Assembly (NCBI GenBank): GCA_963707955.1
Contig: OY970176.1
Span: forward strand, 832,001-896,000
Direction: 5' to 3'
From: Candidatus Bathyarchaeota archaeon
Lineage (GTDB): Archaea; Thermoproteota; Bathyarchaeia; Bathyarchaeales; Bathycorpusculaceae
DNA: 64,000 nucleotides
Part shown: positions 16,074-54,307 of the stretch, piece by piece
How the letters are laid out: each line of letters opens with the position of its first letter
How positions within the stretch are numbered: position 1 is the stretch's first letter
Program-made: the position numbers and the translations under genes
Notes under the pieces: model-generated
Seen by the model: only the letters and a program-made list of their open reading frames with translations
Told to the model about the DNA's origin: nothing
Databases searched by the model: none

Positions 16074-16168
16074 AACACAAACAACCCCCTTTTTCTATCC
16101 AACATCATGCTTAACCATAGCGCGCGCTGACCAGAAAATAAAAAACACACACGCACGAAGCGCACGCG

Positions 16169-16429
16169 CTATTCTTTGGCTTGATATACTTCATACAGCA
16201 TGTATACACCGATCAATTCAAACAATAGGCAGAAGACAAATATTATTGGGACAATTTCCCACATATCACGGGCAATAATGTATAGGATGTTACTGTTATC
16301 ATTAAAGCTCCTCCAGTAATCCAGCTTACTTTGCAGCACAACATTCAGTCCGATTCCCACAAAACCGAGAAGCATTATAATTACCGCTAATACCGTCTTG
16401 ATTAGCGCGCCAATATTGATCTTCTTCAT
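16169..16429 (-). CDS. Small two-TM membrane protein (cargo)
   Basis: Two hydrophobic segments. Confidence 0.6.
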   Translation of the reverse strand: MKKINIGALIKTVLAVIIMLLGFVGIGLNVVLQSKLDYWRSFNDNSNILYIIARDMWEIVPIIFVFCLLFELIGVYMLYEVYQAKE

Positions 16430-16532
16430 TTTTCGTTAGCTCTGACGAATAGAAATAGCTATGAAATTAGGACTTAATAAACCAGCGATGCCCATGTCCT
16501 TTAACTAACAGTATCCCGAAAACAAAAACATA

Positions 16533-16582
16533 TTGGCTCGTGAGCCTTTCGGCTCACTCGCACGTTCCAGACGATACGCCAA
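16533..16582 (-). repeat. Structured 50-bp repeat, copy 1
   Basis: TTGGCTCGTGAGCCTTTCGGCTCACTCGCACGTTCCAGACGATACGCCAA on the + strand; 5 copies in window. Confidence 0.9.
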
Positions 16583-16674
16583 ATAAAACCGATACTCTCA
16601 GGACCAACATCAATGCGCACAGAGAAATGAATGCGGTTATGTATATGCGTTTACGTTAAAGACTTCACGCCGAG

Positions 16675-18006
16675 TCAAAAACGTGAGCTTTGGCTCGAAG
16701 CATCCATCAATCGGTCAATGCATGTTCTAGTTTTGTAAAGATGTACAATATTCGGAGTAACGCCTGCAAGTGCAACCTCCCATCCAACAGCTTCTTCCCT
16801 CAGCCATTTGCTCACTGAATTTCGATAATGCTTTGGAACGATAAAACAATCCCAAGCTTTTTGAGGAGCATTAATGTATTTCTCCGCCGCTCCTTCCAAT
16901 AGCATCTTTATGGCGCCTGCATTTGTTCGCAGAACGTCGCTTGTAGCGTACACTAATTTGGTTCTCCTAGTTGACCTCGCAATCAACTTTTCCACTTGAC
17001 GATTATATTCCTCAATCGAATTCTGCAGGCTAATGAGAGAGCCACCCTTAGAGGAAGCTTCTGAAACTATTTGCCCAAATATACTTCTCATTGCATTGGT
17101 TGTTCTCGAATCAAAGATGTCGCTGTATTCAGATATTGGCAAGTTCTCAGAATAAGCGATACGAAGTTTTCTCTCGATGAATTCAAGCACATAAGGGTCA
17201 AATGTTTTCAGAGATTCTGTTCTAAGTGGAGCCTCAAGATTCTCAATTTCCCCTATGTACCGACACCCTATATTTGTGGAGAAAGTTGAATTGAACGCTT
17301 TTGCCAGAAGGAATCTTGGAATCATAGCCAACCTATTGGCAAGAATATTAATGTATTCTCTCGGACTACCCTCGTTAGCTAACTTCACCAGTTGTCCTAC
17401 AAATTCTGCTGTGGGCCTTATGCTCGCGCAAAGACGAGTATAACTCGCATACCGATATACGGGAACATTAATCTTCTCCATCTCCTCGCGCTCTTTCTTC
17501 TCTTCTTCGTTTTCTGTCGCAAGAGAAAGCTTTTTGACAAGGTCAGTTCCACTTTTGTAGTCAACTCCAACGGATTCAGCAGTCTTCAATGCTAGCAAGT
17601 CCGACTGCGCACCAGCCAAGAGCAAATTTACATTATTATCAACGAGTTCTTGAATCACTTCCGACATTTGTTTTAAACACCCGAAGCAATCTACATCGAT
17701 AAAGGGCACAAGCCTTCCCTTCTGTGCCAGCGCAACCACCTCTTCAAACGTCAACCCTGTCTCATCTCTAAAACGGTCAACTTTCTCAATTTTCGGCAAA
17801 CCAACAACTAACGTGTCGTATAGAGGTAGCAAACTGGTCGTCGGGACACATTGCACATCAGGCAAGAACACGCTAGTACCCTTCGGAGGCTCAAAACCAA
17901 TAATGTCCTTGACCCGCAAATTGGAGTAATCTTGTTTTTTCAGATGCTCATCGGAGTAGCTTAAGACATCTTCAATGTATCTAGTCCCTCTCTCAGCAGA
18001 AGACAT
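16675..18006 (-). CDS. Hypothetical protein, 443 aa (cargo)
   Basis: Long ORF with no recognised motif. Confidence 0.75.
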   Translation of the reverse strand: MSSAERGTRYIEDVLSYSDEHLKKQDYSNLRVKDIIGFEPPKGTSVFLPDVQCVPTTSLLPLYDTLVVGLPKIEKVDRFRDETGLTFEEVVALAQKGRLVPFIDVDCFGCLKQMSEVIQELVDNNVNLLLAGAQSDLLALKTAESVGVDYKSGTDLVKKLSLATENEEEKKEREEMEKINVPVYRYASYTRLCASIRPTAEFVGQLVKLANEGSPREYINILANRLAMIPRFLLAKAFNSTFSTNIGCRYIGEIENLEAPLRTESLKTFDPYVLEFIERKLRIAYSENLPISEYSDIFDSRTTNAMRSIFGQIVSEASSKGGSLISLQNSIEEYNRQVEKLIARSTRRTKLVYATSDVLRTNAGAIKMLLEGAAEKYINAPQKAWDCFIVPKHYRNSVSKWLREEAVGWEVALAGVTPNIVHLYKTRTCIDRLMDASSQSSRF

Positions 18007-18108
18007 TTCAAGTCATCAATAGTAAATGGACATCCAAGATTTAACTGCTTTCGCACATGCTTGCCACGGAAGCCTTAGCGCGCGCTATTGGCAACATCTA
18101 GACCGCAT

Positions 18109-18324
18109 CTAATTCGGTACAATGCCCTTCCGCTTCAATCTAGGACACTCGAAGGCAACATGCTCACCGCCGCCTTTAACAATAGAGCCAAACTCAATCA
18201 TTGAACAAGACGGCGCACCCATAACCCAAACACCGTCGCACACCTTCCCATCATAAGGGCAAATCGCTTCAGGACGCAGATTCTTAAGTAGCTTACGCTC
18301 GCTAGACAAAACAATCACCTCCAC
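18109..18324 (-). CDS. Small Cys-rich protein
   Basis: SD GGAGGTGA; CPYDGKVC...C...CPR. Confidence 0.55.
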   Translation of the reverse strand: MEVIVLSSERKLLKNLRPEAICPYDGKVCDGVWVMGAPSCSMIEFGSIVKGGGEHVAFECPRLKRKGIVPN

Positions 18325-18329
18325 CGCAG

Positions 18330-19521
18330 CTAATCAGTCTTAACCCCTCCACTCTTGTCAACATAATTGGGCTTACCTAACTGGTCAAATTCAGGCTCAA
18401 GCCAAGCAGGTCTATAACCAATCATCCCAGTATCCTTAACATTATAATGCGTACCAATCTGAAACACACTTTCCATATCTTCATCACAGATAGCGCAGAT
18501 TAGCGAGTTCGCCAAAATATGAAACTACAGAAGCATGCTTTAGGCCGACCTGAACCAAGCAGTGATGAAGTTCGTACCACAGCGTCCCGTAAATGGACTC
18601 TCTCTTGTCCTTCACACTAACCAGAATCTTGTCAATTTCATAATTTCGCATTTCCCGACCACGAAAACCAGAACATGCCAAGCAATCCTCCTTACTATGA
18701 AAATCGCATAAACGGCACATGTCGTAACCGTTTTTGACATAAGAAACCGTATGAAAATGCGGGCTATACTCTTGACGAGTGTGCGACTCATTCACACGCC
18801 ACCCATGCGGAATAATCACGCCTCCAACAACCCCCCTAATAGCCAGCGCATCCAAAGCCATAGCCTTCAGCTTCGGAATAGGAATGTTGAAACAATTCGG
18901 CAAAAAGGAAACGATAGTATGTTCGGGACAAAACAGGCCATGCTTCTCAGCAGTCTTGATCCGAGCCTCAATAGAACGTGCCGCACGACACGCAAAACCA
19001 TTCAAACAACACTTCGGGCATAACGGACTATGACACCACCAATGCTTGTGCCTAATCAAAATCTTGTCAGTAGCATCCTCACCACGAAACATCTTACCCT
19101 TATGCCCTTCCACATTTTTGCAAGCCGAATACCCATGATGAGAAGCACAAAAATTAGGATTAGTAACAGCACCAAAAGTGGCAGGCACATAAGCAGGAAA
19201 AGGCGCATGCTCATAAGGCAAATAATGATGCGGATTATCCCCCAACCGACGATTTATCCGTAATCGATTCTCTAAAAAACGAGCTGCACGCGACCTCTCT
19301 GCATCAGTAACCTTAACCTTAGACCCAGAAGGTAAGTCATTCTCAACAGCCTTCCAATGTTCCGCCTCTTCAGCGACCTTGTAATTATTGAATCGCAAAT
19401 ATTCAGGACAGTTGAAGCATCTCATCATAATACTAAACAATACAAATTTGCGGTGAGGGCATGGAACACTATCCCAAAAACCACAAAAGAAAGGACGACC
19501 CCGTGTAGTCACATTATCCAT
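18330..19521 (-). pseudogene. HUH rolling-circle replication initiator (Rep), frameshifted near the C-terminus
   Basis: EHTIVS, GGVIIPHGWR, SPHFH and TLWYELHH motifs; C-terminal CAIC continues in another frame (18330-18515). Confidence 0.75.
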
Positions 19522-19649
19522 ATTTTAAACACCGAGAACAACCTTGCATCAAAAAGGTTCAAATTTTCCAACGATTTTGCGACAAGAATGGCAAACACAA
19601 TAAAACCCATAAATTCTAGAATTACGGTAAATACAGAACTGGAATTAAC

Positions 19650-20264
19650 ATGGATAGAAAAGTGAACAAATACTTTGTTACAATTCCCATATTCGACTCG
19701 CAAACGGCAAAGCTACTTGCACCAGAGACAAACTGGAAAATCCTAGAAGCCCTGAGAGATGTTGGAATGGAAGGTTTGTCGGCTGAAGAAATCTCGGAAA
19801 AAATCAAAGTGCCGATATCTTCTGTCTACAACATCTTGAGAACTTTGGAAGCAACTGGTTGGGTACAGAGCACTATGAAACGACCGCCTTGGGGTCGCCC
19901 CTCAAAGAAAATTAAACAACGCTTTGGCGGAAAACCGACAAGAGTTTTCATAGAAACCGTTCCGTGGGGTTTGAATGAACTTGATTATGATTTTATTGAT
20001 AGCCTTATTCCCGTTCTGAAAGATATGAAAAACAACGTGGATGAGCTCAGGGAAAAATGGTTGTCAATTTTGGAAAAGATAGTTTTGACGTACCAAGCAA
20101 ACAACCTGAAGAAATTCTTTCCCCAAGAACCGATAGACAGTGAATGCGGACATAGTCGCGAAGGATTAGAGTTCCTCCGCGCCATCAGCACTGAATTAGT
20201 TTGGGAAATATTGAATGGCAAAGACTTCGATGCGCTGGCAAGAAAACACAAATTCATGAAGTAA
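19650..20264 (+). CDS. Winged-helix (ArsR-like) transcriptional regulator
   Basis: WKILEAL...SAEEISEKIKVPISSVYNILRTLEATGWV. Confidence 0.8.
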   Translation: MDRKVNKYFVTIPIFDSQTAKLLAPETNWKILEALRDVGMEGLSAEEISEKIKVPISSVYNILRTLEATGWVQSTMKRPPWGRPSKKIKQRFGGKPTRVFIETVPWGLNELDYDFIDSLIPVLKDMKNNVDELREKWLSILEKIVLTYQANNLKKFFPQEPIDSECGHSREGLEFLRAISTELVWEILNGKDFDALARKHKFMK

Positions 20265-20448
20265 TCGCGCGAGTCTCAGTCTCACCAGAAGCAACGCATC
20301 CAACGGGTACGCAAATGAACGATAAACGAAGAAATAATAGGAACACGCTCAATGAATGGACCCATTGCTAATCGCTAGTTACGACTCAAATGAGTGAAGA
20401 ACGCGAGAACGATCTCCTCGGCGCGCGCGATGCAAACTCCTCAAAAGT

Positions 20449-20661: not shown

Positions 20662-20790
20662 TGTGCTGTCCTCCCAACCTGTTCGGTCTTCCCCTCAATC
20701 CATACTTACACCAATCAAGAAGAACATCAGAGGTTGAATTTTAGACTTTCGTCTCAACAAGCGCGTGCCGAAAAAACCAGTCCGCTCATG

Positions 20791-21010: not shown

Positions 21011-21072
21011 CGATACGCCCAATTATGGGCAGAAATAGAGGTCCCAAAAAGTCTAAAAGGAGTAGAAGGCCA

Positions 21073-21271
21073 ATGAGCAAAGAAAGTCAGAACCCAAGCC
21101 AGCCGCCAGCCAGCGAGCGAGTAAGCCAGCAGGCCAGTCAGCCTCATGCCATAGCCCTCAACGGTGAAAAACAAAGCCCGAATCAACCAGTAAACAATAA
21201 ACAAACACAAAAAACAGAAGATAAAGAAAATTATAATGGATTAGGACGGGTTACGACCAACACGCCAGCCC
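21073..21271 (+). CDS. Int(N): N-terminal fragment of the split integrase of element 1
   Basis: AGGAG SD and ATG 21073; frame runs into att as GRVTTNTPAL, the same frame as Int(C) at 15147. Confidence 0.65.
21247..21271 (+). repeat. att copy 2 (junction of elements 1 and 2)
   Basis: CGGGTTACGACCAACACGCCAGCCC. Confidence 0.9.
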
Positions 21272-21338
21272 TTTACACCTGTACACCGCCCTTTTGCAGA
21301 AATCGACATCAAAACGCGGTTCTGAGAGGTGAAGACTG

Positions 21339-22286
21339 ATGACGTACAGAAACACCTCAATCAGACCCGTAATAACACCAACCACACTCGAAAAACAATT
21401 AATCCCTAACAATACATCAATCCTGAACGTACTAATTCAAATGAAAAACGACAACAAGAGCGACTACACAATAAACTTCACCAGAAAAGCACTGAACCTC
21501 CTGGCAAAACATACGAGCCTCGCGGAACCTGAAGCAGTGAAGCACTTCATAGCACAACACCGAGTGTCAGACGGATACAAAAGAAACCTCTGCATAGCTT
21601 ACAACAAATACTGCAAATACTACAAAATAGAATGGCAAATGCCACAGTATCTCGAAGAAGCCAAGAATATCAAACTACCAACAAGAGAAAAACTACTCAT
21701 GTTAGTAGCCAAAACCAAAGTCCCATTGTCAATCAAACTGAGGCTGAGTATGGAAACAGGATTACGGCCCGTCGAACTATGCAGACTAAGAGTTAACGAC
21801 TTGGATTTAGACCACAGAACAGTCAACCCAACAACCGCCAAGAAAGGTAATCCGAGAACACTGCCAATTTCGCAATCACTCACAGAATCATTAATTGAAT
21901 GGATAGGCAAGAAACGACTAAAACCAACCGACAAAATATTCAAAGGAAAAGCCGACGATTACGGCAAACACTATCGAATCATGCGAAACAAACTTGCAGA
22001 AGACATTAAAGACCCATCAATACGCATGATCAGGCTATACGACTTCAGACACTATTTTTGCACCAAGAAACTAAACGACATCGGAAATCCTTACACTGTA
22101 ATGGTCTTGATGGGACACAAAAAACTTGAAACCACGCAAAGATACATGCCCCTACTGAATCTAAACGACGATGAATGGACATGCACAGGAGCAACAACTG
22201 CGCAAGAAGCTATGAAACTAATAGAAGCAGGCTATCAATATGTCACAACAATCGAAGGAATACAGCTGTTCAAAAGAAGAAAATAG
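21339..22286 (+). CDS. Tyrosine integrase, paralog 2
   Basis: Same R-K-YxxR-H-Y motifs as integrase 1; own SD GAGGTGA. Confidence 0.92.
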   Translation: MTYRNTSIRPVITPTTLEKQLIPNNTSILNVLIQMKNDNKSDYTINFTRKALNLLAKHTSLAEPEAVKHFIAQHRVSDGYKRNLCIAYNKYCKYYKIEWQMPQYLEEAKNIKLPTREKLLMLVAKTKVPLSIKLRLSMETGLRPVELCRLRVNDLDLDHRTVNPTTAKKGNPRTLPISQSLTESLIEWIGKKRLKPTDKIFKGKADDYGKHYRIMRNKLAEDIKDPSIRMIRLYDFRHYFCTKKLNDIGNPYTVMVLMGHKKLETTQRYMPLLNLNDDEWTCTGATTAQEAMKLIEAGYQYVTTIEGIQLFKRRK

Positions 22287-22699: not shown

Positions 22700-22807
22700 T
22701 TTGATACACTCAGATAATCTGCTCCGTTCTTTTGGAAATATAAGCCTTTGCAGAGTGACCACAATGCAAACATCAAAAACCTCTCTTTTATTCAAGCAAA
22801 ATTCGTC

Positions 22808-22857
22808 TTGGCTCGTGAGCCTTTCGGCTCACTCGCACGTTCCAGACGATTCGCCAC
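22808..22857 (-). repeat. Structured 50-bp repeat, copy 2
   Basis: Two substitutions versus copy 1. Confidence 0.9.
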
Positions 22858-23245
22858 GAAGACTAATACCTTTCGTTTCTGCTTGGAACATTCCACGACA
22901 AGTTCGAGTATTAATATAAGTCGCTCTCTACGCACTATGCGTTCAGCGGCAGAAGGAGTGCTCTTTTATTTGAATGAGGAAGAGCTGAAGAAAATCTGGT
23001 GGAACATCCTTCAGAAGAAAGGATGTTCAATCCAAGAAGTTGAAATAGGATCTAGGAGATATTTGACGACAAATTACAGGCGAACAGAGCCTGTAGGCTC
23101 AAGTGAAGCGCGCGCGCTAAAGACCTGAACGAATTTATCCCAGACATATCAAGCTGAATTACTAGCTGAACGTTTTGCTATCGCCCATGGAAGTTGGTTG
23201 GGGCAAAGTCTTATGAAAAACCCCGAGGCTGACTAAAACTCAAGC

Positions 23246-24502
23246 TTAGCACTTAGGAATCTGTTCGTACAAACCCAACGTTTTTGCAGCGATCTTATCC
23301 CAAGTAAACTCGTTCAGAACCCTCTTTCTACCGTTCTTTCCAAGCCACTTTTTCTTGTCAGCATTTTCCAAAACGCTGTTTATTCCCCATGCTATGTCCG
23401 ACGGATTATTAGGATCTATGTGATAACCACATTGCTCATCTCCGCAACAGACAACGATTTCACGCATCCCACTTATACCCGCAGCTCCAACAACAACAGG
23501 TCGTTCCATCGCCATGGCTTCAAGAACAACTATTCCGAAGGGCTCATAGAAACTTGGGAAAACTGCAACGTCACATGCAGCATAATGAAGAATACGTTCT
23601 TCCTCGGGAATGAATTCGAACCTGAACTTCACGAAATCACTCATCTTCGTAGCTTTCACCAGATTCATCAAGTATTCCTGCAAGTCGCCAAGACCAACGA
23701 TAACAAGCTTCGCCTTAGGATTCTTCTGCAAAACATGCGGCAAAGCCATAATCAGTTTATCAACACCTTTCATACCGGCGAGTCGACCTATAAAAAGAAT
23801 CATTTCCTCATCGTCCTTCACGTCATACATAGCTCTGATCTTTTTGACTTGATCAGGAGTCACCGTGCTCGGATTGTACTTGTCAGGGTCGACACCGTTA
23901 TAGGAAACCTGGATTTTCTCCTTCGGAAAACCAAGTCCAACCAACTCATCCTTCATAGCATAAGAAACTGTCACGATAAGGTCGGCCACTCGAGCGGCGT
24001 GAAGTTCAATGTTGCTGAGAGTGACCGAACCGTTCCCAAGAGTTCTTCCCTTTTCGGTTGAATGAACATGAAAAGCGAATGGCATTCCAACCTCCCTTTT
24101 CACAGTCATCCCTCCTATGGCAGAAAGCCAGTCATGAGCGACCACTATGTCATACTTGATATCTTCTTTCCTGATCAGTTCATTAACCAGCTTCGACGCA
24201 CTCAAATAATTATAGACAAAAATTTTAGAGAAAAATTGTATTCCTTTCCCCATTCCCCACTTCCTTATGTCTTCTGCAACAACGTCAGGCAGAGAATCGG
24301 AAATGTCAATGGGCAACGGACGGTGAATCTCGATACCGCGCCAAATCTCCCGTGTCGGCAAGCTACCGGCGTCATCATTCATCGTAAACACAGTCACATC
24401 ATTGTCGTCCAAAACAAACTTCCGAGTAATCTCCGCAGCGTAGGTGCCTAATCCCCCAACAATCTTAGGAGGGTATTCCCAAACAAGAACCGCCAACTTC
24501 AT
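23246..24502 (-). CDS. GT4 glycosyltransferase (glycogen-synthase-like), copy A
   Basis: WEYPPKIVGGLG, AHDW and YEPFGIVVLEAM motifs. Confidence 0.92.
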   Translation of the reverse strand: MKLAVLVWEYPPKIVGGLGTYAAEITRKFVLDDNDVTVFTMNDDAGSLPTREIWRGIEIHRPLPIDISDSLPDVVAEDIRKWGMGKGIQFFSKIFVYNYLSASKLVNELIRKEDIKYDIVVAHDWLSAIGGMTVKREVGMPFAFHVHSTEKGRTLGNGSVTLSNIELHAARVADLIVTVSYAMKDELVGLGFPKEKIQVSYNGVDPDKYNPSTVTPDQVKKIRAMYDVKDDEEMILFIGRLAGMKGVDKLIMALPHVLQKNPKAKLVIVGLGDLQEYLMNLVKATKMSDFVKFRFEFIPEEERILHYAACDVAVFPSFYEPFGIVVLEAMAMERPVVVGAAGISGMREIVVCCGDEQCGYHIDPNNPSDIAWGINSVLENADKKKWLGKNGRKRVLNEFTWDKIAAKTLGLYEQIPKC

Positions 24503-24726
24503 TTTTTCACCATCGCGAGTCGATCGATGGCTTCTAACTGATACAAAACTTTACCTTATTTACTTTCCTCACTCAACATACACCTGTTCTGACGATCATA
24601 AAGCAGATTTCATTTCCTAGCGCGCGCGCAATTGCTATAGCGTACGTATAAGAAAAGTTAAGAATAAGTTAAGAATCACTCCGCGCGCAGAATATCCTAC
24701 CAACAGCTTGACCGCGATAGTAGCGC

Positions 24727-24765
24727 GCTCGCTCGCTCGCTCGCACGTTCCAGACGATACGCCAA
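24727..24765 (-). repeat. 50-bp repeat, copy 3 (partial; hairpin replaced by (GCTC)n)
   Basis: CTCGCACGTTCCAGACGATACGCCAA retained. Confidence 0.8.
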
Positions 24766-25330: not shown

Positions 25331-25408
25331 TATGCTCAGTGCGCGCGCGCTCAAAAAACCGACACAGATCGCTCGATAAAACTCTAGCTCCACACACTGA
25401 AACTACTG

Positions 25409-25912: not shown

Positions 25913-25952
25913 GTTCGATTCAAGTCTCCTTTAATATTTTGTGTAGCGCGCG

Positions 25953-26043
25953 TGACAGCGAAAGAAGCAACCAAACTTGTAGAAGCAGGATTCCAACACG
26001 TCACAACAATCGAAGGAATACAACTATTCAAAAACGCAAGTAA
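25953..26043 (+). pseudogene. Integrase 3'-end remnant
   Basis: TAKEATKLVEAGFQHVTTIEGIQLFK matches the C-termini of both integrases. Confidence 0.88.
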
Positions 26044-26115
26044 CCAACAACCTCCCTCCTTTTTTAATGTGGAAAACATATTTACTCATGAGAGTAGCGT
26101 GCGCGGGTAATACTC

Positions 26116-26565: not shown

Positions 26566-26598
26566 GAGTGCACTTGTTCTATATACTGTCGATCGATA

Positions 26599-26645
26599 GC
26601 TCGTGAGCCTTCCGGCTCACTCGAACGTTCCAGACGATACGCCAA
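26599..26645 (-). repeat. Structured 50-bp repeat, copy 4
   Basis: Loop variant GGAA on the minus strand. Confidence 0.88.
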
Positions 26646-26858: not shown

Positions 26859-27230
26859 GCCCCAAGAAAGAACTTTGCAAAACTCTTTTTCTCTTTTTAC
26901 CATAAAGTTGGCTTCTTTAATGAAATGAAAGAAAGACGCGTCAGCTTTGGATATTATTGGCTTCCTCCATTAATGCGAAAGAAATATGTTTTAGCTTGTT
27001 TATTTATCGTTAATTTGTAGCTGAGATTTATGCCGAGTGTAATGAAACGTAAACAAAAGAATACTCAAATCGCACAACAGAAAAAGATAGAACGGGATAA
27101 AGAAGCGAAAAAGAAACAGTTGAGACAGCAACTTCCTGCCAAGGGCAAGAAACGTTAAAGCCACTAAAGGAGCTATGGTAACCATCTAGAGCGCGCGCCT
27201 AGAAGACAACAATACAGCGCGCGCTGCTTA

Positions 27231-27752
27231 TCATCCGAACAGGTCCAAGAAGGGGGTAAGCAAATGTTTCGTAACGAAGTTTTCATTCACCAACTCGCCA
27301 TCTTCAGCATTTAGACCGTTACAGGAAGGAATTAGCTTAAGCGTGAAGGAGTTCGGACTGACTCTCTCAAAGTCGAACGGGTACAATCTGCAGCGAGCTG
27401 GCCTAGAATTGTAAATCGGACACTCGTAAGACCCTCTCCTTGGACTGGATTTTAGGAGAATACACCATCCATCTTTGTTGTTTTTCAAGTTTCCAACCAT
27501 CATAGGCAAGCGCTTGAACTTCGGATCCACTGTTGTCTCCAAAAAGTCTTCCAATCTGTGTCCCGTTTTTTTTGCCCGCTCCATATCGCTCTTGATGAGT
27601 ATTGGTCCCCCAAGTTTGCAGCAGAAGACTGCACATCGTTTACACCTGAAACGAAGATCATCATGATAAAAAGTCATCCTCAAAATTCGTTTAGCTTTGG
27701 GATCCAAGATGACTTCTGCAATGTTTTCGTTCAAGTTCTTGCCCTTGCCCAA
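27231..27752 (-). CDS. YkgJ-family Cys-cluster protein
   Basis: FRCKRCAVFCC and CPIYNSRPARCRLYPF motifs. Confidence 0.85.
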   Translation of the reverse strand: MGKGKNLNENIAEVILDPKAKRILRMTFYHDDLRFRCKRCAVFCCKLGGPILIKSDMERAKKTGHRLEDFLETTVDPKFKRLPMMVGNLKNNKDGWCILLKSSPRRGSYECPIYNSRPARCRLYPFDFERVSPNSFTLKLIPSCNGLNAEDGELVNENFVTKHLLTPFLDLFG

Positions 27753-27834
27753 ACAGCTCGCTTTTTGGAGTGTTTAAAGCTTATGTTCTAGCGGGCGCAA
27801 ATAACGACAATCCTTTTTTCCCACAAAAACCATC

Positions 27835-27880
27835 TTGGCTCGTGAGCCTTTCGGCTCACTCGCACGTTCCAGACGATACG
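27835..27880 (-). repeat. Structured 50-bp repeat, copy 5
   Basis: 46-bp identity to copy 1. Confidence 0.9.
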
Positions 27881-27939
27881 TTCAAAGAACCGACACAGAT
27901 CGCTCGATAAAACTCTAGCTCCACACACTGAAACTACTG

Positions 27940-28431: not shown

Positions 28432-28548
28432 CTTTTCGCGCCAGATGTCAAGTTTGATTCAAGTCTCCTTTAATATTTTGTGTAGCGCGCGAAACATCAA
28501 ACGCTGAAAACTAAAATAATAAAAAAATGGAAACTAACCGCGCGCGCG

Positions 28549-28591
28549 AACAACAATCGAAGGAATACAACTATTCAGAAAACGCAAATAG
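28549..28591 (+). pseudogene. Integrase 3'-end remnant
   Basis: TTIEGIQLFRKRK* followed by the same C/T-rich terminator-like tract as integrase 1. Confidence 0.85.
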
Positions 28592-28645
28592 CCACAACCC
28601 CCATTTTTTTATTTCGAAATAGAAGGAAAGAAACTGCCTGAGAAA

Positions 28646-29005: not shown

Positions 29006-29081
29006 TCTTTCAAGAAATCGTATTCTTCCTCAAGATAGCATCAAAAATTTTACCGTACAGTTTTGTCAGTAACGCGCGCGC

Positions 29082-29133
29082 GAATGGCAAAGACTTCGAT
29101 GAACTGGCAAGAAGACACAAATTCATGAAGTAA
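29082..29133 (+). pseudogene. 3' remnant of the element-1 HTH regulator
   Basis: NGKDFDELARRHKFMK* matches 20213-20264. Confidence 0.85.
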
Positions 29134-30340: not shown

Positions 30341-30469
30341 ATAGGAGACGGGAAGCTAGGGCAGAAATCGAGCTCCCAAAATTTTTAGGAGACGAAAAAT
30401 GATGAGCCAAGAAAAGACGGAACCACAAACACAGAAGACAACAATTTCAAAGATTACTAAGGCTATAGA

Positions 30470-30493
30470 CGGGTTACGACCAACACGCCAGCC
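30470..30493 (+). repeat. att copy 3
   Basis: CGGGTTACGACCAACACGCCAGCC. Confidence 0.9.
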
Positions 30494-30589
30494 TTTTCTC
30501 AGAACCCGCCTCCTGATATCAACACACAGAACGGAAAACTCATAGAATACATGCTATATCTACAAAGAGCAGGATTCAGCGAAGCTTAG
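30470..30589 (+). pseudogene. Probable 5' remnant of a third Int(C)
   Basis: RVTTNTPAF...GKLIEYMLYLQRAGFSEA* in the att frame; resembles integrase N-terminal helices. Confidence 0.5.
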
Positions 30590-34115: not shown

Positions 34116-34349
34116 AAGTAGGCTGCTGTCTGCCCGCGTGGTCAGCTAACCCGCTTCTAGACACTGGCTGATTGTTCAAACCAGCATCCTGAAGAGGACA
34201 ACTTGAGGAACGTTCTGCGAAAGAAAAAGTAGCTTATTCCACAAACTTCACTGAACGACCCGCGCGCGCGAGTTAGCGCGCGCTAAGATTATGCCAGAAT
34301 AAGACTAAGCGCGCTAGTTCGAAGTCTATGTCTATTGTTGAGAAGGAAA

Positions 34350-35355: not shown

Positions 35356-35509
35356 AAGCTACTACAGCATTCGTCGTAGCTTCTACTGACTTAAGAAGGT
35401 AGCGACGATCCCGCGTGCTACTTGCGCCTTCTGAAGACCGCGCGCGGCGCGCGTTTTTCTTTCGAAACTCTTATCTTTGGTTTTGCTGATACTGAAATAG
35501 GATCAGGCA

Positions 35510-35710
35510 ATGGTGTTGTGTCCTAGGTGTGGAAACGAAGCATTAGATTCATCGACGGAGTGGGAATTTGCTGATTTCCACGTCAGGCTTTTTGTTTGCT
35601 CCAAATGCAAGAAGACATTCAAGGCATATTATCGAAAGGGAAGGTTAAGTCATACCATACCCAAACGTTCTGGACAAACCTTTCATTCAGGGTCAGCGCA
35701 CGCGCGCTAG
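35510..35710 (+). CDS. Small Zn-ribbon protein
   Basis: CPRCG...CSKCKKTF. Confidence 0.65.
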   Translation: MVLCPRCGNEALDSSTEWEFADFHVRLFVCSKCKKTFKAYYRKGRLSHTIPKRSGQTFHSGSAHAR

Positions 35711-37851: not shown

Positions 37852-38040
37852 TTAGCGTTTAGCGCGCGCGCTTAGCTTCCTTACCCATTCTATTTTAGTA
37901 GAGTAAACTTCACGCAATTGTGGAGAAGTAATGGGTTTCCATTCTTGAGCCACTGCAAGCATTCGACTTTTGGATTTACTATTCTTGCCTTTTCGTTTGG
38001 GTTTTTCTTTCCTTATCGGTTTATAATGTTCAGGTTTCAT
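37852..38040 (-). CDS. Small basic protein
   Basis: 62-aa Lys-rich ORF ending in a (GC)n tract. Confidence 0.4.
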   Translation of the reverse strand: MKPEHYKPIRKEKPKRKGKNSKSKSRMLAVAQEWKPITSPQLREVYSTKIEWVRKLSARAKR

Positions 38041-38506
38041 GTTCGATCTCTGCTAGTTCAAGCTTAGATACCTAACATATATAGAAGTTTTGTCACTTTT
38101 TTGATTTAGCGCGCTTTTACCAAAGGGTTGATACAGGCTATTTCCATGAATGAAACAAACCCGCGGGCGTGTCATCTATTTTTTGAGCTTTACGACGGGC
38201 AGATGTAGATTGGTTTTCCCTGTGTTCTCGGTTTCACGTGATTGTGCCTTGAGGAAGATCGCTTGGCCGCTTTTTATGTCCAAAACATCTGTCTTTCCTG
38301 AAGATGTCAGTTTTAGTTTGGCACCTTAGCGCGCGCGAATCTGGGACAAGGGAGCCGCACGAAAATATCCTCACGATGCTCTGTTGGTTAATCGGTTTAT
38401 AAGGAGGTTTGCGCATTATGGGGCAGTAGCGTTCTGTTGTTGAAGGACGAGAAGAACACAGCAACGTTGCACGTTACAATGAATGATGAAAAGGGGTGAT
38501 TTGGAA

Positions 38507-38794: not shown

Positions 38795-38864
38795 GAGAAC
38801 CCTCGAGAAACACACGCGCAATTATGGTGAGTGGCTATTAAGAAACGGGTAACGATGAAGAACA

Positions 38865-40115
38865 ATGAAGCTTGCTGTTCTGGTCTACGAGTATCCCCCG
38901 AAGATCGTCGGTGGGTTGGGAACTTACTCGGCTGAAATAACTCGCCAGTTTGTTCTCATGGACAATGACGTTACAGTTTTCACGATGAATGATGATGCTG
39001 GTAGTTTGCCAACGCGGGAGATTTGGCATGGTATCGAAATTCATCGGCCCCAGCACATCGACATTTCTGACTCGTTGCCCGATGTAGTTGCAGAAGACAT
39101 AAAGAAATGGGGTAGTGGGGGACAGTGGTTCTCAAAAATCCTCGTGTACAATTATCTGAGCGCTGCAAAACTCGTTAATGAGTTGATAAGAAAAGAAGGC
39201 ATCAAGTTCGACCTTATCGTTGCTCATGACTGGCTTTCAGCTATAGGCGGAATGACTGTCAAGAAAGAGGCAGGATTGCCTTTTGCGTTCCACGTTCACT
39301 CAACAGAAAAAGGAAGAACGCTTGGAAAAGGCTCGGTTACAGTGAGCAACATTGAACTCCACAGCGCCAAGGCGGCTGATCTTATTGTGACAGTTTCTTA
39401 TGCAATGAAAGATGAGCTAATAGGCCTCGGATTTCCGAAAGAGAAAATCCAAGTTGCCTACAACGGGGTCGACCCAAAGAAATACGATCCCGCAAAAGTG
39501 ACATCTGAGCAGATCAAGAAAGTCAGAGCGATGTATGGTATCAAAGACGATGAGTACATGATTCTTTTCATAGGCAGACTCGTTGGCATCAAAGGCGTTG
39601 ACAAGCTTATCCTGGCGTTGCCCCACATTCTGCCGAAAAATCCAAAGGCGAAGCTTGTAATTGTGGGTCTAGGCGACTCGCAAGAATACCTGATGAATTT
39701 GGTTAAAGCCGCGAAAATGAGCGATTTTGTGAAGTTCCGTTTCGAGTTCATCCCAGAAGAGGAACGTATCCTTCACTACGCAGCATGTGATGTCGCAGTT
39801 TTCCCAAGCTTCTATGAACCCTTCGGAATAGTGGTTCTGGAGGCAATGAGTATGGCGCGACCAGTTGTCATCGGTGCTGCAGGCATCAGCGGTATGCGGG
39901 AGATAGTCGTGTATAACGGTGAAGAACAGTGCGGTTATCACATAGATCCGAGCAACCCGTCAGACATAGCTTGGGGCATAAACTGCGTCTTGGAAAACGA
40001 TGAGAAAAGAAAGTGGCTGGGCAGAAACGGAAGAAAGCGAGTTCTGAACGAGTTCACTTGGGACAAGATAGCTGAAAAGACACTGGGGCTTTATGAACAG
40101 ATCATCAAACGCTAG
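38865..40115 (+). CDS. GT4 glycosyltransferase, copy B
   Basis: Close paralog of 23246-24502. Confidence 0.92.
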   Translation: MKLAVLVYEYPPKIVGGLGTYSAEITRQFVLMDNDVTVFTMNDDAGSLPTREIWHGIEIHRPQHIDISDSLPDVVAEDIKKWGSGGQWFSKILVYNYLSAAKLVNELIRKEGIKFDLIVAHDWLSAIGGMTVKKEAGLPFAFHVHSTEKGRTLGKGSVTVSNIELHSAKAADLIVTVSYAMKDELIGLGFPKEKIQVAYNGVDPKKYDPAKVTSEQIKKVRAMYGIKDDEYMILFIGRLVGIKGVDKLILALPHILPKNPKAKLVIVGLGDSQEYLMNLVKAAKMSDFVKFRFEFIPEEERILHYAACDVAVFPSFYEPFGIVVLEAMSMARPVVIGAAGISGMREIVVYNGEEQCGYHIDPSNPSDIAWGINCVLENDEKRKWLGRNGRKRVLNEFTWDKIAEKTLGLYEQIIKR

Positions 40116-40184
40116 GCTTGACGCGCAGTGGTCCGACGTTTAACCCAGAGTTTTTCGGTGAATTCGTGACAATTGTTTGAAGTT

Positions 40185-48529: not shown

Positions 48530-48815
48530 CCCAGCACGAGCGCGCATGCTTGTTCCTAAATTCCGTTGAAGAGAGGTGCATGGCGTTTTCCGATGGTTGA
48601 TGGTTGCTGTCGCGGTTCGAGTGGGTTCTCGCTTGCTCACACCCTCCCCCCGGGTATCCTATATGATCCAAATATGATTGAAGAGCAGAATGAGCAGCAC
48701 TGCGTTGAGTTGGATGGGCTTGGACTGAAGTCGCAAAGGATATATGGATATCGGTTATTGGATATCGGAAAGCAGGGCGCTACGGAGTTGTCTGCGTTAT
48801 TTGTGGGTGACTGAT

Positions 48816-50572: not shown

Positions 50573-50651
50573 CTGCAAGCCGCATACTTTGCAGTTCTTC
50601 GGTACCGGTGCGTTATTGGCGCGCGCGCTCAATTTGTCACAATCGCATGTC

Positions 50652-51737
50652 TTAGCGCGAGTATTTGAAGCTGAAGCCTTTCTGAACTTTCTTAACTGTG
50701 GCTGTCAAGAGCTTGACGGAATTGACAACGTCATTGACGTCCAAGACTTCGTACGAGTGGGCATATCTCGTTGGAATTGAGATCACGCCGCTGGGAACAC
50801 CTTCCCTCGTCAAATGAATCGTTGCCGCGTCAGTAGAACCCTGAGGCAAGACTTCCATTTGATATGGAATTTTCTCCTCCTCTGCGGTCGAAACCAGAAG
50901 TTCCCTCACTTTTGGATGAGAGATCAAACCCAGAGCTCCACCTGCTTTATCCATGACTTTTATGGCTGGACCCGCGCCAACTTTGGTGACTTGATCTTTT
51001 TCGGCGATGCCGGGAATGTCTCCGGCAAGTGTTATGTCAACGGCTATGGCCATGTCGGGAGCGATCTTGTATGCTGCGACTTGTGCTCCACGGCAACCGA
51101 CTTCTTCTTGGACGTCTGCTACGCCGTAAACGTTTGCTTCAAGTTTCTCTCTTGCAAGTTTCTTCATGGTTTCTATGATCACGCACACGCCGACTCGATC
51201 GTCAAACGCCTTGCTGGCAAGTATGTTTCCCGATCCGAGAGCTTTGAATGGGCGTTCGAAAGTGACTGAGTCTCCGATGTGGATGCCTAGCTTCTCGGCT
51301 TCTTTCCTGTTCTTAGCTCCTACGTCGATGAAGAACGCCTTTGGGTCGGGCATTTTATTCGCTTCTTCCGGTGTTTCGGATGGCTTGCAGCAGGTCAAGC
51401 CGCTTACCGGACCTTTCTTGCAATGGACGGTGACAGACTGGGAGAATAAAGATCTTGGAGACACTCCGCCGATTCTTTCGAAGTGTAGAAAGCCCTTCTC
51501 ATCGATGTGCTTGATGAGAAGCCCGACCTCGTCCATGTGCCCGGCAAGCATGATCTTTGGGCCGTCCTTCACACTGGCTTTTTTCAGGGATATCACGTTG
51601 CCGAAATTGTCTGTCTCGACCGAGTCGACATATCGTTCAAGCTCGTGGTAGATTAGCTTTCCAACATCCATCTCGTACCCAGAGACTCCTGATGCTTCGG
51701 TCAGACGTTTCAGAAGACCCTTTATTTCGTTCTCCAA
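50652..51737 (-). CDS. M42 aminopeptidase (TET-like)
   Basis: GHMDEVG, FDDRVG, QEEVG, GSTDA and TRYAHS motifs. Confidence 0.93.
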   Translation of the reverse strand: MENEIKGLLKRLTEASGVSGYEMDVGKLIYHELERYVDSVETDNFGNVISLKKASVKDGPKIMLAGHMDEVGLLIKHIDEKGFLHFERIGGVSPRSLFSQSVTVHCKKGPVSGLTCCKPSETPEEANKMPDPKAFFIDVGAKNRKEAEKLGIHIGDSVTFERPFKALGSGNILASKAFDDRVGVCVIIETMKKLAREKLEANVYGVADVQEEVGCRGAQVAAYKIAPDMAIAVDITLAGDIPGIAEKDQVTKVGAGPAIKVMDKAGGALGLISHPKVRELLVSTAEEEKIPYQMEVLPQGSTDAATIHLTREGVPSGVISIPTRYAHSYEVLDVNDVVNSVKLLTATVKKVQKGFSFKYSR

Positions 51738-52227
51738 GCCAATTCAACTCGCAACAGGTGCGCTGATAGCGTGCACTATGCTGTCGATTCAATAAAAGAT
51801 TTTTCCAGATCTGCATGCGCTGAGTGTTACGACCAACAAGCTGGCGCGCGCTACGCGGTAAATTTACAGAGTTGAGGAGTAGTCTTCTGAGTTTAGTTCG
51901 GCGTCTTGCCGCTTGAATAGTTCGCCTTTTTTCTTGTTTTCAGCGTGCGTTCCCGTACCTGGATAAAGTGTAAAAGCCGTTGTCTCACCCTTTCCTTACA
52001 AACTTTATAACTTACAATATTTGTAAGGATTTTCTTGACAAAGTTCTGCGATTTGCCAAGAGGCGTCGGCCCCTCTAGTGCGCGCGTTTTTCAGAAAGTT
52101 AATGTTGTATGCCAACTGATGGGTAAATGCGTTAAATTTCTGAATGAGTTGAGGCTTGGCAGGTTTTAAATATTTTTAATGCAGTATGCCATAAAATGGA
52201 TAACTACGTTAAAAAAGTGAAAAGCCT

Positions 52228-53055
52228 ATGGTGAACAAAACGGAAGCACTCTACAATGCTCTTCTCCCCACGAAAATTGCAGGCTTTGACGACATTATGC
52301 AAGTAGCGTCAACCGTAATTGAAGGCCCTGCAAACCGCAAATACGTCTATCGCAAGTACGTTAAAAGACTGATTGAAGCTCACAAGTTTCTGGCAATCCG
52401 GAAGGGTCTGTATGCCGTTCTGTCTCCGCTGGAAAAAGCAGAAAAGTACGAACCAGATAAACTTCTAATCGCCTCCAAAATCAGAAAAGAATACTACTTG
52501 GGCTTCCACACCGCCTAGGAATACTACGGCTGCGCTTACTCTGCTTTCAATGAAGCTTACATATGCGTCAACTCGAAAGTCAACTCGAAAGACAGGTTCG
52601 ATCTTTTCAGGTACAAACGGTTCATCTTCAAACCGTTATTCGTCAAAGACACGACATCACAGGTCGTTGAGAAACGGTACGGAAGCAGCCTTCTGAGAGT
52701 CAGTGGCAAGGAAAGGACGTTCACCGAATGCATCGACAGAGTTCAATATGTCGGAGGCTGGGAAGAATGCGTAAAAAGTCTGGAAAATCTCCGCGGACTC
52801 GACGTTGAAAAACTGATCAGCCTAACCCTTCAGCAAGGGAAGAGGAGTCTTCTCAGACGGATCGGCTTCATCGTGGATCTTCTGAGAAAGAGATCACCGT
52901 TCTATGAACACGTCACCGATACTATGCTGAGCAAAATAGACATTGAAACCAGAGGTCCACCGCAATACTTGGTCCGTGGAAAAAAAGGCAGCCTAAACAG
53001 AAGATGGAACCTGTACATTCCAGAAGCTTTGGATGAACAACTTAGAGGCATCTGA
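52228..53055 (+). pseudogene. AbiEi-like type IV TA antitoxin with an internal TAG at 52516-52518
   Basis: IRKGLY, GFHTA*EYYG, KERTFTECIDR, GGWEE and RRWNL in one frame. Confidence 0.8.
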
Positions 53056-53349
53056 GTGAAAAGGAAATACGATTTTGATGCGTTAACGCTGCAATACGGG
53101 TTCAGCGCCAAAGAAATAGAAAAAGTATGCCGAATCTCGGATCTGCTAGAGGACATCTCAGCTGTGAAATTCCTCTCAGACCGCCTATCACTTTACGGCG
53201 GAACAGCTCTCACATTCATCTACTCACCAGAAACACTGCGATTGTCCATAGACCTCGACTTCAACTATCGACACACAGACAATGCAGACTGGGGAGAGAT
53301 CCGAAAGGAAATCGACAAACGGCTGAAAGATCTAGCGCGCGCGCAATAG
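53056..53349 (+). pseudogene. AbiEii-like nucleotidyltransferase toxin, truncated
   Basis: IEKV, YGGTAL and RLSIDLDF motifs; ends in a (GC)n tract after about 93 aa. Confidence 0.82.
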
Positions 53350-53493
53350 GTTACGGCCAACACGCTAGCCCCTTGAAGAAACTTGTCTAGAGGATATTTG
53401 TCTTTGTAGAATGCGTAATCAGAGCTTTAGAGTGTTTGTAGTAAGAGTTAAGTGTAACTTATGTGTCATTTTGTTATGGATAAGGGATACTTC

Positions 53494-53688
53494 ATGAGCG
53501 TAACGAAAACCCGAAGAGTTGGCGGTTCGCTGGTCGTGACAATACCCAAGAAACTCATCGATAGTAAGAAAATCAAGGAAGGAGAGTTGGTGGAGATAAG
53601 CGTAAGGAAGGTAAAGATGGATGGGTTCGGAGCATTTAGAATGCTGAAACCGTTCACGGCGGAAGACGAGTTGAACGCGCATGACTAG
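53494..53688 (+). CDS. AbrB/MazE-type antitoxin (VapB-like)
   Basis: KTRRVGGSLVVTIPK...IKEGELVEI. Confidence 0.85.
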   Translation: MSVTKTRRVGGSLVVTIPKKLIDSKKIKEGELVEISVRKVKMDGFGAFRMLKPFTAEDELNAHD

Positions 53689-54088
53689 AGAATATGTAGT
53701 TGACGCGTATGCTTGGATAGAGTATCTGATTGGAAGCGACGTCGGCGCAAGAGTCAAGGTTGTACTTGAGGATGAGAATAATGGGATTTACACGAGCGCT
53801 GTGACGCTTGGAGAGGTGATAAGCAAGATTGCTCGTGAAGAGCAGGACGTGTGTACTGCGTATCGCATTTTGCTCAGTAACTCAGATGTCATTGACGTAG
53901 ATGAGGAGTTGTCGAAGCAAACAGGAATAATTCACGCTGAAATGCGAAAGAGCAAGAAAGATTTCGGACTGGCCGACGCATTCGTTTTGGCCACGGCAAG
54001 AAAACTTGGAACAAGAATCCTGACAGGTGACCCACACTTCCAAGGCATCAAAGAAGCGACGCTAGTGATAAAAAAGCCTGTTAGTTAA
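53681..54088 (+). CDS. vapC: PIN-domain toxin (VapC-like)
   Basis: VVDAYAWIEY, GLADAF and ILTGDPHF motifs; overlaps the antitoxin gene. Confidence 0.9.
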   Translation: MTREYVVDAYAWIEYLIGSDVGARVKVVLEDENNGIYTSAVTLGEVISKIAREEQDVCTAYRILLSNSDVIDVDEELSKQTGIIHAEMRKSKKDFGLADAFVLATARKLGTRILTGDPHFQGIKEATLVIKKPVS

Positions 54089-54307
54089 TCTTCTATGACT
54101 CCTCCTGCGACGGGAGAGCAGATATCTCATAGTATCTAGGCATATCTCCTCGGTTAATAGGCAAAGGCGAAATCTACTAGGTAAGACATTCGGAACGGAT
54201 TTTCTATCAAGCAGAGCCCTGATTCAGGTATCGACTATGGGGTAAGCAAAGTCTTATACAATCTGGGTTAAGACTAACTGTCTCCGAGACTAGCGCGCGG
54301 GTTGTGC

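Follow-up and report, generated by a model that had tools for sequence, protein, structure and literature searches.

A 64,000-nt stretch of the genome of a Candidatus Bathyarchaeota archaeon (contig OY970176.1, positions 832,001 to 896,000; hereafter the window) carries dozens of short tracts of alternating G and C, some of which lie exactly where a gene or a gene fragment breaks off. What left these tracts, and why do they mark such junctions? A preliminary description of the window had proposed that they are added when DNA ends are joined, by an undescribed end-joining pathway with a palindromic filler, as the footprint of a mobile element or at a cassette-shuffling site. We found that GCGCGC is the terminal hexamer of a family of insertion sequences (IS) and miniature transposable elements with inverted repeats (MITEs), so that the mobile-element footprint is the best fit among these three mechanisms. 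The earlier interpretation is partly supported: the tract is probably a mobile-element scar made with the help of end joining, not the product of a new universal filler pathway.

GC tracts are genome-wide and mostly intergenic

The genome, designated G000, is a single contig (C1) of 2,346,764 bp with 47.9% G+C, and the window corresponds to G000:C1:832001-896000. Archaeal genes in the window include those for a family-B polymerase, eRF1, TBP and an aldehyde:ferredoxin oxidoreductase. We defined a tract as a maximal alternating-GC run, with a length cut-off of at least 6, 7 or 8 nt as stated, the last being called long; coding and intergenic classes were taken from a crude home-made gene set covering 79.6% of the genome. 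The octamer GCGCGCGC occurs 33 times in the window (overlapping matches), whereas 100 dinucleotide shuffles gave 0.59 on average and never more than 4. Every position named in the preliminary description indeed carries a tract, and the range 16118-54300 holds 54 runs of at least 6 nt and 28 long ones, 22 of which are fully intergenic. Long runs number 0, 29 and 0 in the window parts 1-13000, 13001-55400 and 55401-64000, as expected from the reported rarity outside the accessory region. They delimit one zone (no strand is assigned to tracts or to the segments between them):

13107 to 54298: zone with all long tracts of the window; 55 runs of at least 6 nt and 29 of at least 8 nt within 13001-55400

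Although confined to 13.1-54.3 kb within the window, the tracts are not special to this region but a feature of the entire genome. GCGCGCGC is the top-ranking octamer of G000, with 464 copies, and the total is 1151 maximal runs of at least 6 nt (510 of 6 nt, 186 of 7, 267 of 8, 130 of 9, 56 of 10 and 2 of 11, with nothing beyond 11 nt). Among the 455 long runs, 392 (86%) are fully intergenic, 49 are coding and 14 straddle a gene boundary. The proposed Markov count gave 400 intergenic copies of GCGCGCGC, above all expectations (5.7, 18.8 and 72.4 for orders 1, 2 and 3), and 50 coding copies (22, 14.5 and 9.6 expected).

The flanks of the 231 exact (GC)4 copies favour A at -1 (72%), T at +1 (70%), T at -2 (43%) and A at +2 (38%), show no conservation more than 2 nt out, and vary independently on the left and right. 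The 12-mer TAGCGCGCGCTA, said to be frequent, occurs only twice in the window (regions of 18076 and 34274) and 19 times in the genome; what recurs is the A at -1 and the T at +1. Tract density is patchy across the genome and peaks in lower-GC stretches. All four intergenic classes carry tracts (0.65-1.07 per kb), no distance to gene starts or stops is preferred, and a single tract forms a weak hairpin (-4.1 kcal/mol, z 0.06). Presence in all intergenic classes without a preferred gene distance led us to reject a promoter or terminator element, and a length distribution that peaks at 8 and ends at 11 to reject microsatellite slippage. A longer repeat or MITE hidden around every tract was likewise rejected, given the unconserved outer flanks and the few tracts beside a motif like the terminal inverted repeat (TIR) described below.

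The tracts are real DNA and no assembly artefacts, because contigs from other samples cross them and independent genomes of the genus carry them, often at orthologous positions. Logan contigs of samples X2 and X3 span the tracts at 25341, 28485-28548, 29073, 32375 and 33375, and also those at 34261-34314 and 35439-35706, with 0-1 differences.

GCGCGC bounds a family of insertion sequences and MITEs

GCGCGC is the outermost hexamer at both ends of insertion sequences of ~1.1 kb and of at least three MITE families. The TIR common to the insertion sequences and MITE families A, B and C reads GCGCGC-(A/T)(T/A)GC(G/T)TGTTCCTRAATTC, with variants. MITE-A, of ~200 bp, is the commonest dispersed repeat with tract ends; 22 copies of at least 120 bp among 25 matches are bounded as GCGCGC-ATGCTTGTTCC...GGAACACGCTA-GCGCGC, with the ends (T)A-GCGCGC-ATGCTTGTTCCTRAATTC ... 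GAATTCAGGAACACGCTA-GCGCGC. Other miniature families follow the same design (GCGCGC-TAGCGTGTTGCTAAATTC and GCGCGC-TGGCTTGTCCCTAAATT). Members referred to here are:

48539 to 48700 of the window, plus strand: truncated MITE-A copy with the end GCGCGC-ATGCTTGTTCCTAAATTCC, hexamer at 48540-48545
G000 389080-390160: insertion sequence of ~1.1 kb, ends as in MITE-A, DDE_Tnp_1/DUF772 transposase in two broken frames
G000 1671430-1672560: insertion sequence of ~1.1 kb, ends as in MITE-A, DDE_Tnp_1/DUF772 transposase in two broken frames

Both insertion sequences match the transposase profiles PF01609 (DDE_Tnp_1, 70 bits) and PF05598 (DUF772, 42 bits). Intact transposase frames of 329-349 aa are found in the genomes G003, G006 and G009, where related insertion sequences are bounded by (C)GCGCGC. 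The best NCBIfam matches, IS1182 (73 bits, cut-off 270) and IS5_4 (61 bits, cut-off 140), are all below cut-off, and by this comparison the transposase appears distantly related to the IS5/IS1182 families; neither an IS630/Tc1-type (PF13358) nor a Y1/RAYT (PF01797) transposase was matched in G000. In G017, from another family of the order, a related insertion sequence ends in GTGC/CGTGC, and that genome has a single AGCGCGCGCT. As judged by eye, the hexamer at MITE ends is almost always exactly 6 nt, whereas solo tracts span 6-11 nt, which favours inheritance of the hexamer with the element. TA lies on both sides of one insertion sequence; for MITE-A it is found at ~12 of 20 left and ~3 of 16 right ends (also by eye).

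A strict paired-TIR pattern retrieved 15 pairs in G000 and 0 in contig C1 of G007, the closest genus-mate (~92% identical). BLAST with the flanks placed 9 of 102 repeat copies in G007:C1, most of them shared by both genomes or belonging to a second, tract-free repeat family. This family, of ~190 nt, is present at window positions 10544-10727 and at ~20 or more other places in G000 (for example 1402853-1403013 and 1454549-1454759); its sequence, …CCCTAGGG…GACGGGGT.AAAACGCGAATACAGGGATGT, has no Rfam match, and its copies are mostly shared with G007. Elsewhere, at G000:C1:1558996-1560759 (L081), two MITE-C copies in the same orientation surround 1.4 kb with a MEDS-domain gene and a zinc-finger open reading frame (ORF). 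The same site in G007 has a single MITE, which suggests recombination between MITE copies.

Tracts arise de novo at some junctions

We compared five sites at which a MITE is present in one genome and absent from another (G000 versus G001 or G007):

Site 1: MITE-B in G007; the MITE-less allele of G000 reads CGCGCGCGC
Site 2: MITE-A in G001; the MITE-less allele of G000 reads GCGCGCGC
Site 3: MITE-A in G007; the MITE-less allele of G000 reads GCGGGCG
Site 4: MITE-A plus 400 bp in G000; the MITE-less allele of G007 reads CGCGCGC-TAG
Site 5: MITE-B in G007; the MITE-less allele of G000 reads AAGGAGGTGC and is tract-free

The MITE-less allele has a tract or near-tract at four of the five sites, where it falls short of the combined length of the two flanking hexamers by a variable 2-5 nt. 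These element sites are compared as end states in different genomes, and polarity was established for one deletion. There, G007 is without a 1.1-kb segment, and GCGCGCGC lies exactly at the deletion junction. The segment is ancestral because it is present and contiguous in G000 and G001 and partly present in G003; the undeleted G000 and G001 alleles are tract-free at both of its boundaries. In G000 the lost segment contains, 153 bp in from its edge, a solo element end (..TTTCAGCAACACGCAT-GCGCGC); G001 has GCGCGC at the matching position. A 306-aa ORF within the segment has no Pfam match and is not a recognisable transposase.

The window itself offers further junctions. We checked at base level where a tract adjoins the start of homology to an intact copy that has ordinary sequence at this point, and six window junctions carry a tract where the intact paralog does not. 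This bears out the report of tracts at breakpoints with tract-free intact counterparts, which had cited the integrase tails, the tail of a helix-turn-helix gene, the left edge of one GNAT copy and the AbiEii truncation. The reference gene, the six tracts concerned and one further tract of the same area (28485 to 28491) are:

15225 to 16073, plus strand: intact tyrosine integrase 1, reference for the integrase tails
24723 to 24728: GCGCGC beside a truncated copy of the hairpin repeat D4, seen in the base-level check and absent from the preliminary list
25341 to 25350: (GC)5 flanking GNAT module A on the left; in copy B (27879 onward) the D4 repeat takes this place, with no tract
25946 to 25952: GCGCGCG with GNAT module A on one side and integrase tail A (25954-26068) on the other; the homologous position of intact integrase 1 is tract-free
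28485 to 28491: GCGCGCG at the right edge of GNAT module B, identical to the copy A tract; the sequence beyond differs from copy A
28539 to 28548: (CG)5 adjoining the shorter integrase tail B (28550-28615), seen in the base-level check
29073 to 29082: (CG)5 adjoining a 3' fragment of a winged-helix (TrmB/IclR-like) gene; the intact gene (19650-20264) is tract-free there
53335 to 53344: (GC)5 where the truncated AbiEii gene (53056-53349) meets the last copy of a repeated RNase P RNA 3' end, seen in the base-level check

Comparison with the relative L001 and with contigs of other sequencing runs added segments and sites at which tracts and their surroundings differ. For runs X4 and X5, parts of low cover and joints at likeness 90 were counted only where the contig gave explicit letters.

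27172 to 27830: 659-bp segment that includes tracts at 27191-27198 and 27217-27224; in a contig of run X4 the 9 letters ACGCGCGCT stand in its place
37862 to 38114: module of ~240 bp bounded by (GC)5 (37862-37871) and GCGCGC (38109-38114), with paralogs at G000 1418611-1418853 and 1662715-1662955
40155 to 40156: tract-free site between TTTTT and CGGTG; another X4 contig has an additional GCGCGCG, a pure tract insertion polymorphism
51844 to 52086: segment between the tracts 51844-51851 and 52080-52086; L001 has an unrelated 1.1-kb segment instead

Contigs of four runs diverge exactly at 37872, the left edge of the ~240-bp module (37872-38108). At the AbiEii site, L001 has the same left flank but (GC)4 in place of the window's (GC)5, and its AbiEii is longer by 170 bp; the tract is thus shared by both strains while the adjoining DNA differs, and a similar one-sided difference is seen at a second site. 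The tract-free intact paralogs, the G007 deletion, the 7-nt GCGCGCG insertion and the ACGCGCGCT replacement in X4 together establish that tracts arise de novo at some junctions. The claim that tracts are added during joining therefore stands for these cases, but some tracts pre-exist, as at the AbiEii site. Tract-encoded ORF tails (LARAQ, SARAKR and ARARAKT) are present as described, and in 8 of 232 ORFs of at least 60 aa a tract lies within the final 33 nt.

A probable array of integrated elements makes up the accessory region

The tract-rich zone essentially matches an array of integrated elements, which agrees with a build-up of tracts in mobile, strain-specific DNA. The last ~48 nt of an archaeal RNase P RNA gene recur along the window, and these repeats delimit an accessory region of ~38 kb:

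14859 to 15165, plus strand: archaeal RNase P RNA gene; further copies of its 3' end (15127-15174) lie at 21227-21274, 30450-30497 and 53327-53374
21339 to 22286, plus strand: intact tyrosine integrase 2

Tyrosine integrase genes, identified by scanning against the Pfam profile Phage_integrase, come after the first two copies of the repeat. The repeats look like attachment (att) sites of tandemly integrated elements that form the accessory region, and the RNase P RNA gene seems to be the integration site of these integrase-bearing elements; no tRNA gene serving as an integration site was found in the window.

Several other features of this region were recorded. The hairpin repeat D4 occurs near element borders at 16509-16578, 22784-22853, 26572-26641 and 27811-27880, with a truncated copy at ~24729-24760; a 7-bp stem (GTGAGCC-TTTC-GGCTCAC) is followed by CACGTTCCAGACGATACG, and the fold has -9.9 kcal/mol (z -2.7). 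Just past an att repeat, the ORF at 30597-31163 matches the C-terminal half of Cas1 only (profile positions 151-279) and may be a remnant of a CRISPR adaptation module or of a casposon. Two GT4 glycosyltransferase genes (23240-24506 and 38861-40121) form an inverted pair, 76-77% identical, that encloses ~14.4 kb of tract-rich DNA.

Tracts are enriched at breakpoints and in strain-specific DNA

A self-comparison of G000 gave 2648 distinct homology ends, and 270 of them are no more than 3 bp away from a tract of at least 6 nt, compared with 17 expected. With multi-copy repeats removed, 54 of 859 ends lie within 3 bp of a long tract (2.4 expected), so that homology breakpoints fall on tracts ~20 times more often than by chance; among intergenic low-copy ends the figure is 51 of 461 (5.6 expected). 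A tract is found at one end of 64 and at both ends of 12 of the 451 low-copy segments (6.6 and 0.025 expected), and 375 have none at either end. The self-comparison also revealed a 5,996-bp tandem duplication of 99.95% identity at G000:C1:2096997-2108976.

A tract lies within 12 bp of 13 of the 60 G000/G007 synteny junctions and 47 are without one; a tally by eye of the clean indels in the same list found ~17 of ~24 tract-free. The suggested test by strain alignment hence yielded a tract at only a minority of synteny junctions, and the breakpoint association is partial. Because tracts are absent from most junctions and segment ends, an undescribed end-joining pathway is not needed.

In a comparison with 790 kb of G007, long tracts are 8.7-fold denser in G000-specific gaps than in G007-aligned DNA (4.0 versus 0.46 per 10 kb), and the difference persists in intergenic DNA alone (1.16 versus 0.21 per kb). 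Of 30 G000 tracts of at least 7 nt in the initial 400 kb compared, 24 are kept in G007 with at most one change. Identity in aligned blocks is 0.77 for tracts and 0.87 for their flanks (12 intergenic tracts). Selection on the tract was rejected on this ground, with 12 intergenic and 8 coding tracts in all lying in aligned blocks. The tracts are under no visible selection and behave as neutral scars in variable DNA.

Ku-LigD end joining and the tract excess are essentially confined to one genus

Candidate end-joining enzymes, which the preliminary description proposed to correlate with the tracts, do exist. An operon at G000:C1:957178-960144 (L186) encodes a LigD primase-polymerase, Ku and an ATP-dependent ligase with a LigD phosphoesterase domain. 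We counted AGCGCGCGCT as a marker of tract excess: G000 has 114 copies, all 10 genus-mates have 7-92, and 28 of 30 other genomes of the family and order have 0-1, the remaining two having 5 and 9; the reversed control word occurs 0-4 times. Ku was detected in 7 of 10 genus-mates (completeness of the other three, 65-89%) and in 2 of the 30 other genomes, and the transposase query matched 5 of 10 and 5 of 30, respectively. None of the 30 outside genomes matched both, two having Ku without a transposase match and five the reverse, and none of these seven has a tract excess. The Ku-LigD operon and the tract excess are thus both essentially confined to one genus. The phyletic patterns of Ku and transposase are confounded by kinship and draft incompleteness and serve here as consistency checks. 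The literature searched, supplements being outside the search, contained nothing on GC tracts, MITEs or non-homologous end joining (NHEJ) in Bathyarchaeia.

A proposed origin of the tracts

We propose, at about an even chance of being right, that solo tracts are IS/MITE termini which stayed behind when an element was excised or deleted, and which end joining then sealed together. An element would be excised, or lost together with adjoining DNA, and a few terminal bases of each end would remain. Because the element termini are GC palindromes, the remnants could pair in several registers before the host Ku-LigD system seals them, giving a stereotyped (GC)3-5 scar of at most two hexamers; pairing in steps of two would fit the even-length classes and the cap at twice six, no tract exceeding 11 nt. 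If an insertion were coupled to a deletion and the element then lost, the tract would be left at a deletion or fusion junction, which would explain truncated genes fused to tracts. Such scars would be neutral, would accumulate in non-coding, strain-specific, mobile DNA and would decay by mutation. The (GC)3-5 scar does have the sequence of the terminal hexamer of the elements. Insertion with deletion and without target duplication is described for an IS5/IS1182 element in the available part of bioRxiv 10.1101/2024.06.02.596822, and the accessible text of PMC5678879 describes IS1182-family elements as associated with palindromes, some members targeting them.

Several observations weigh against this origin. 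Direct repeats of 2-6 nt around solo tracts are at chance level, with no sign of a target duplication. A TIR-like motif adjoins only 18 of the 455 long tracts, so that hundreds of losses have to be assumed against a few dozen surviving elements. The scars are more often (GC)4 than (GC)3, unlike the outcome of simple slippage between two hexamers, and at several sites the tract is kept while adjoining DNA is lost on one or both sides, unlike plain resection, which would take the tract first. A palindromic target cut mid-way would, moreover, mimic a terminal inverted repeat and so look like an element end in the sequence. We know of no IS4/IS5/IS1182-type transposase that leaves terminal bases at the donor site. 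The transposase is unmatched in 5 of 10 genus-mates, all drafts, among them the tract-rich G004 and G008; and, owing to kinship, the co-occurrence of Ku and tracts amounts in effect to one phylogenetic event, so that the correlation of phyletic spread, although positive in that both are largely genus-restricted, is a single observation. Finally, tract-bounded gene cassettes stand outside the proposed origin and are left unexplained by it. One is a 585-bp segment with a CRS1/YhbY-domain gene, of which G000 has two copies of 100% identity (715099-715683 and 1421017-1421601). Tracts of (CG)3.5-4 enclose both copies, as they do the segment in G007 and G001, making four of five contexts and three genomes; left flanks of three or four kinds and right flanks of three kinds occur, and only the G003 context is without tracts.

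Alternative explanations

The same facts can be read from the side of the target. In this view the (GC)4 palindrome has some other origin, and an IS or MITE enters it at the centre with duplication of a few bases. The resemblance of the GCGCGC halves to element ends would be deceptive, and a solo tract would be a target that is empty or has been vacated precisely. We consider this unlikely, while noting that some IS1182-family members do target palindromes (PMC5678879, in the part available), that 6 + 6 - 4 = 8 fits a 4-bp duplication in (GC)4, that MITE flanks and solo tracts have the same outer A/T preference, that tracts of 8-10 nt lie beside some element ends and that four of five MITE-less alleles have a tract. 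It leaves the origin of ~450 tracts without account, however, and does not fit tracts at sites where intact paralogs or orthologs are tract-free, the MITE-B insertion whose empty allele is tract-free, an empty-site shortfall that varies instead of equalling a fixed duplication, or the poor conservation of the tracts. The cassettes raise another question, namely whether (GC)4-5 is a live minimal recombination or transposition site, so that DNA between two tracts moves as a cassette. The site might be formed by joined IS ends still reactive toward the transposase or Ku-LigD, or might be cut and religated by a tract-specific enzyme; both forms strike us as rather doubtful. That tract-bounded units themselves move or are exchanged is nevertheless suggested by the 585-bp segment, whose matches in G001, G003 and G007 all begin and end at its boundaries, and by the ~240-bp window module, which resembles it in behaviour. 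Pointing the same way are the 12 low-copy segments with tracts at both ends, the inter-tract segments swapped between G000 and L001, and tracts retained while their flanks changed. On the other side, no candidate for such an enzyme emerged; known site-specific recombinases need more than 8-10 bp without conserved flanks; the units are devoid of subterminal repeats of the kind bound by DDE transposases; a second copy is missing for most tract-bounded intervals; and repeated insertions and deletions at hot spots could look like cassette mobility.

Two further explanations dispense with the transposon. That Ku-LigD adds an alternating GC filler at any double-strand break seems to us quite improbable: the NHEJ operon is present and largely genus-restricted, and tracts do occur at deletion junctions and in one pure insertion, but most inter-strain junctions and clean indels are tract-free, two Ku-bearing genomes outside the genus have 0-1 tracts, and chance would have to account for the match to the 6-nt ends, which are constant in all IS/MITE families. 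Nor do we know of a polymerase that writes a stereotyped (GC)n. Even less credible is a word resembling the highly iterated palindrome HIP1, enriched by methylation-biased repair or selected as a regulatory, structural or Z-DNA motif. As a palindromic, lineage-specific top octamer the tract does recall HIP1 of cyanobacteria (PMC4390886 and PMC5861425, as far as their accessible text goes), and G000 has eight matches to the N4/N6-methyltransferase family (PF01555). Such a word would leave the coincidence with breakpoints without account, and it is at odds with the intergenic position of most long tracts, their clustering in strain-specific DNA, their lower conservation relative to the flanks, the lack of a fixed position relative to genes, the weak hairpin and the lack of any m5C methyltransferase (PF00145) match in G000.

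Prokaryotic insertion sequences are usually thought to vanish without a trace. If solo tracts are joined element termini, hundreds of legible scars in one uncultured archaeal genus would record element sites, deletions and fusions, and the sequence itself would then disclose earlier rearrangements in accessory regions and integrated elements. The rare archaeal Ku-LigD end joining would be linked to a visible genomic outcome, and scar formation on MITE excision would provide a simple in vivo assay of archaeal NHEJ. For annotation, the scars would account for many truncated genes and short ORFs with Ala-Arg tails. Should tract-bounded cassettes truly be mobile, they would represent a new gene-shuffling route; with live sites, this would be an integron-like shuffling in Bathyarchaeia built from transposon termini and archaeal end joining, of which the 585-bp CRS1/YhbY cassette would be an example.

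Comparison with known systems

Tc1/mariner elements and Stowaway MITEs leave short, stereotyped insertions of element terminal bases at their former sites; these are end-joined and build up in non-coding DNA. The tracts resemble them as insertions of terminal bases that are proposed to be end-joined and that accumulate in non-coding DNA. They differ from these eukaryotic cut-and-paste footprints (compare PMC4561436) in the archaeal host, the DDE_Tnp_1 (IS5/IS1182-like) transposase, the absence of a visible target duplication and the pure GC palindrome; many tracts also mark a deletion or a fusion and not just an empty site. To our knowledge, no footprints have been described for DDE_Tnp_1 transposases of the IS5/IS1182-like type.

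Repetitive extragenic palindromes (REPs) are hairpins of 20-40 nt which, alone or in bacterial interspersed mosaic elements (BIMEs), are associated with REP-associated tyrosine (RAYT) transposases. The hundreds of intergenic palindromic tract copies are reminiscent of REPs and BIMEs, but the tract folds weakly and no Y1 transposase was found in G000. Integron attC sites are imperfect repeats of 57-141 bp used by a dedicated integrase beside the array. As in integrons, gene-sized modules are parted by a repeated palindrome and the same module occurs in different contexts; unlike in integrons, the site has 8-10 bp and is dispersed over the genome, and the integrases of the window go with the RNase P att repeats. 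HIP1, according to the available text of PMC4390886 and PMC5861425, is also found in genes, conserved, quasi-periodic and tied to orphan methyltransferases, and that text does not mention GCGCGC; our tracts share with it the rank of top palindromic octamer and the lineage specificity, and differ in being intergenic, clustered, unconserved and tied to transposon ends.

Two further precedents concern insertion sequences. The available part of PMC5678879 describes an "inverted-repeat-replacing" transposition of IS1272, which targets varied stem-loops of 21-85 bp without a common sequence. The likeness to IS1272 and the IS1182 family, on that text, lies in a distantly related transposase, in element ends entangled with a palindrome, in the lack of a regular duplication and, in at least one case here, in the loss of the target sequence on insertion; the difference lies in one fixed GC word of 6-10 bp with hundreds of element-free copies. 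The "Del-IS-Del" arrangement, as outlined in the accessible part of bioRxiv 10.1101/2024.06.02.596822, explains an element end against a truncated gene. There the IS remains at the junction, whereas here only the GC tract is left, so that a second step, loss of the element, must be assumed. What is new here is a probable scar of the transposon-footprint or palindrome-associated-IS type in an uncultured archaeal genus.

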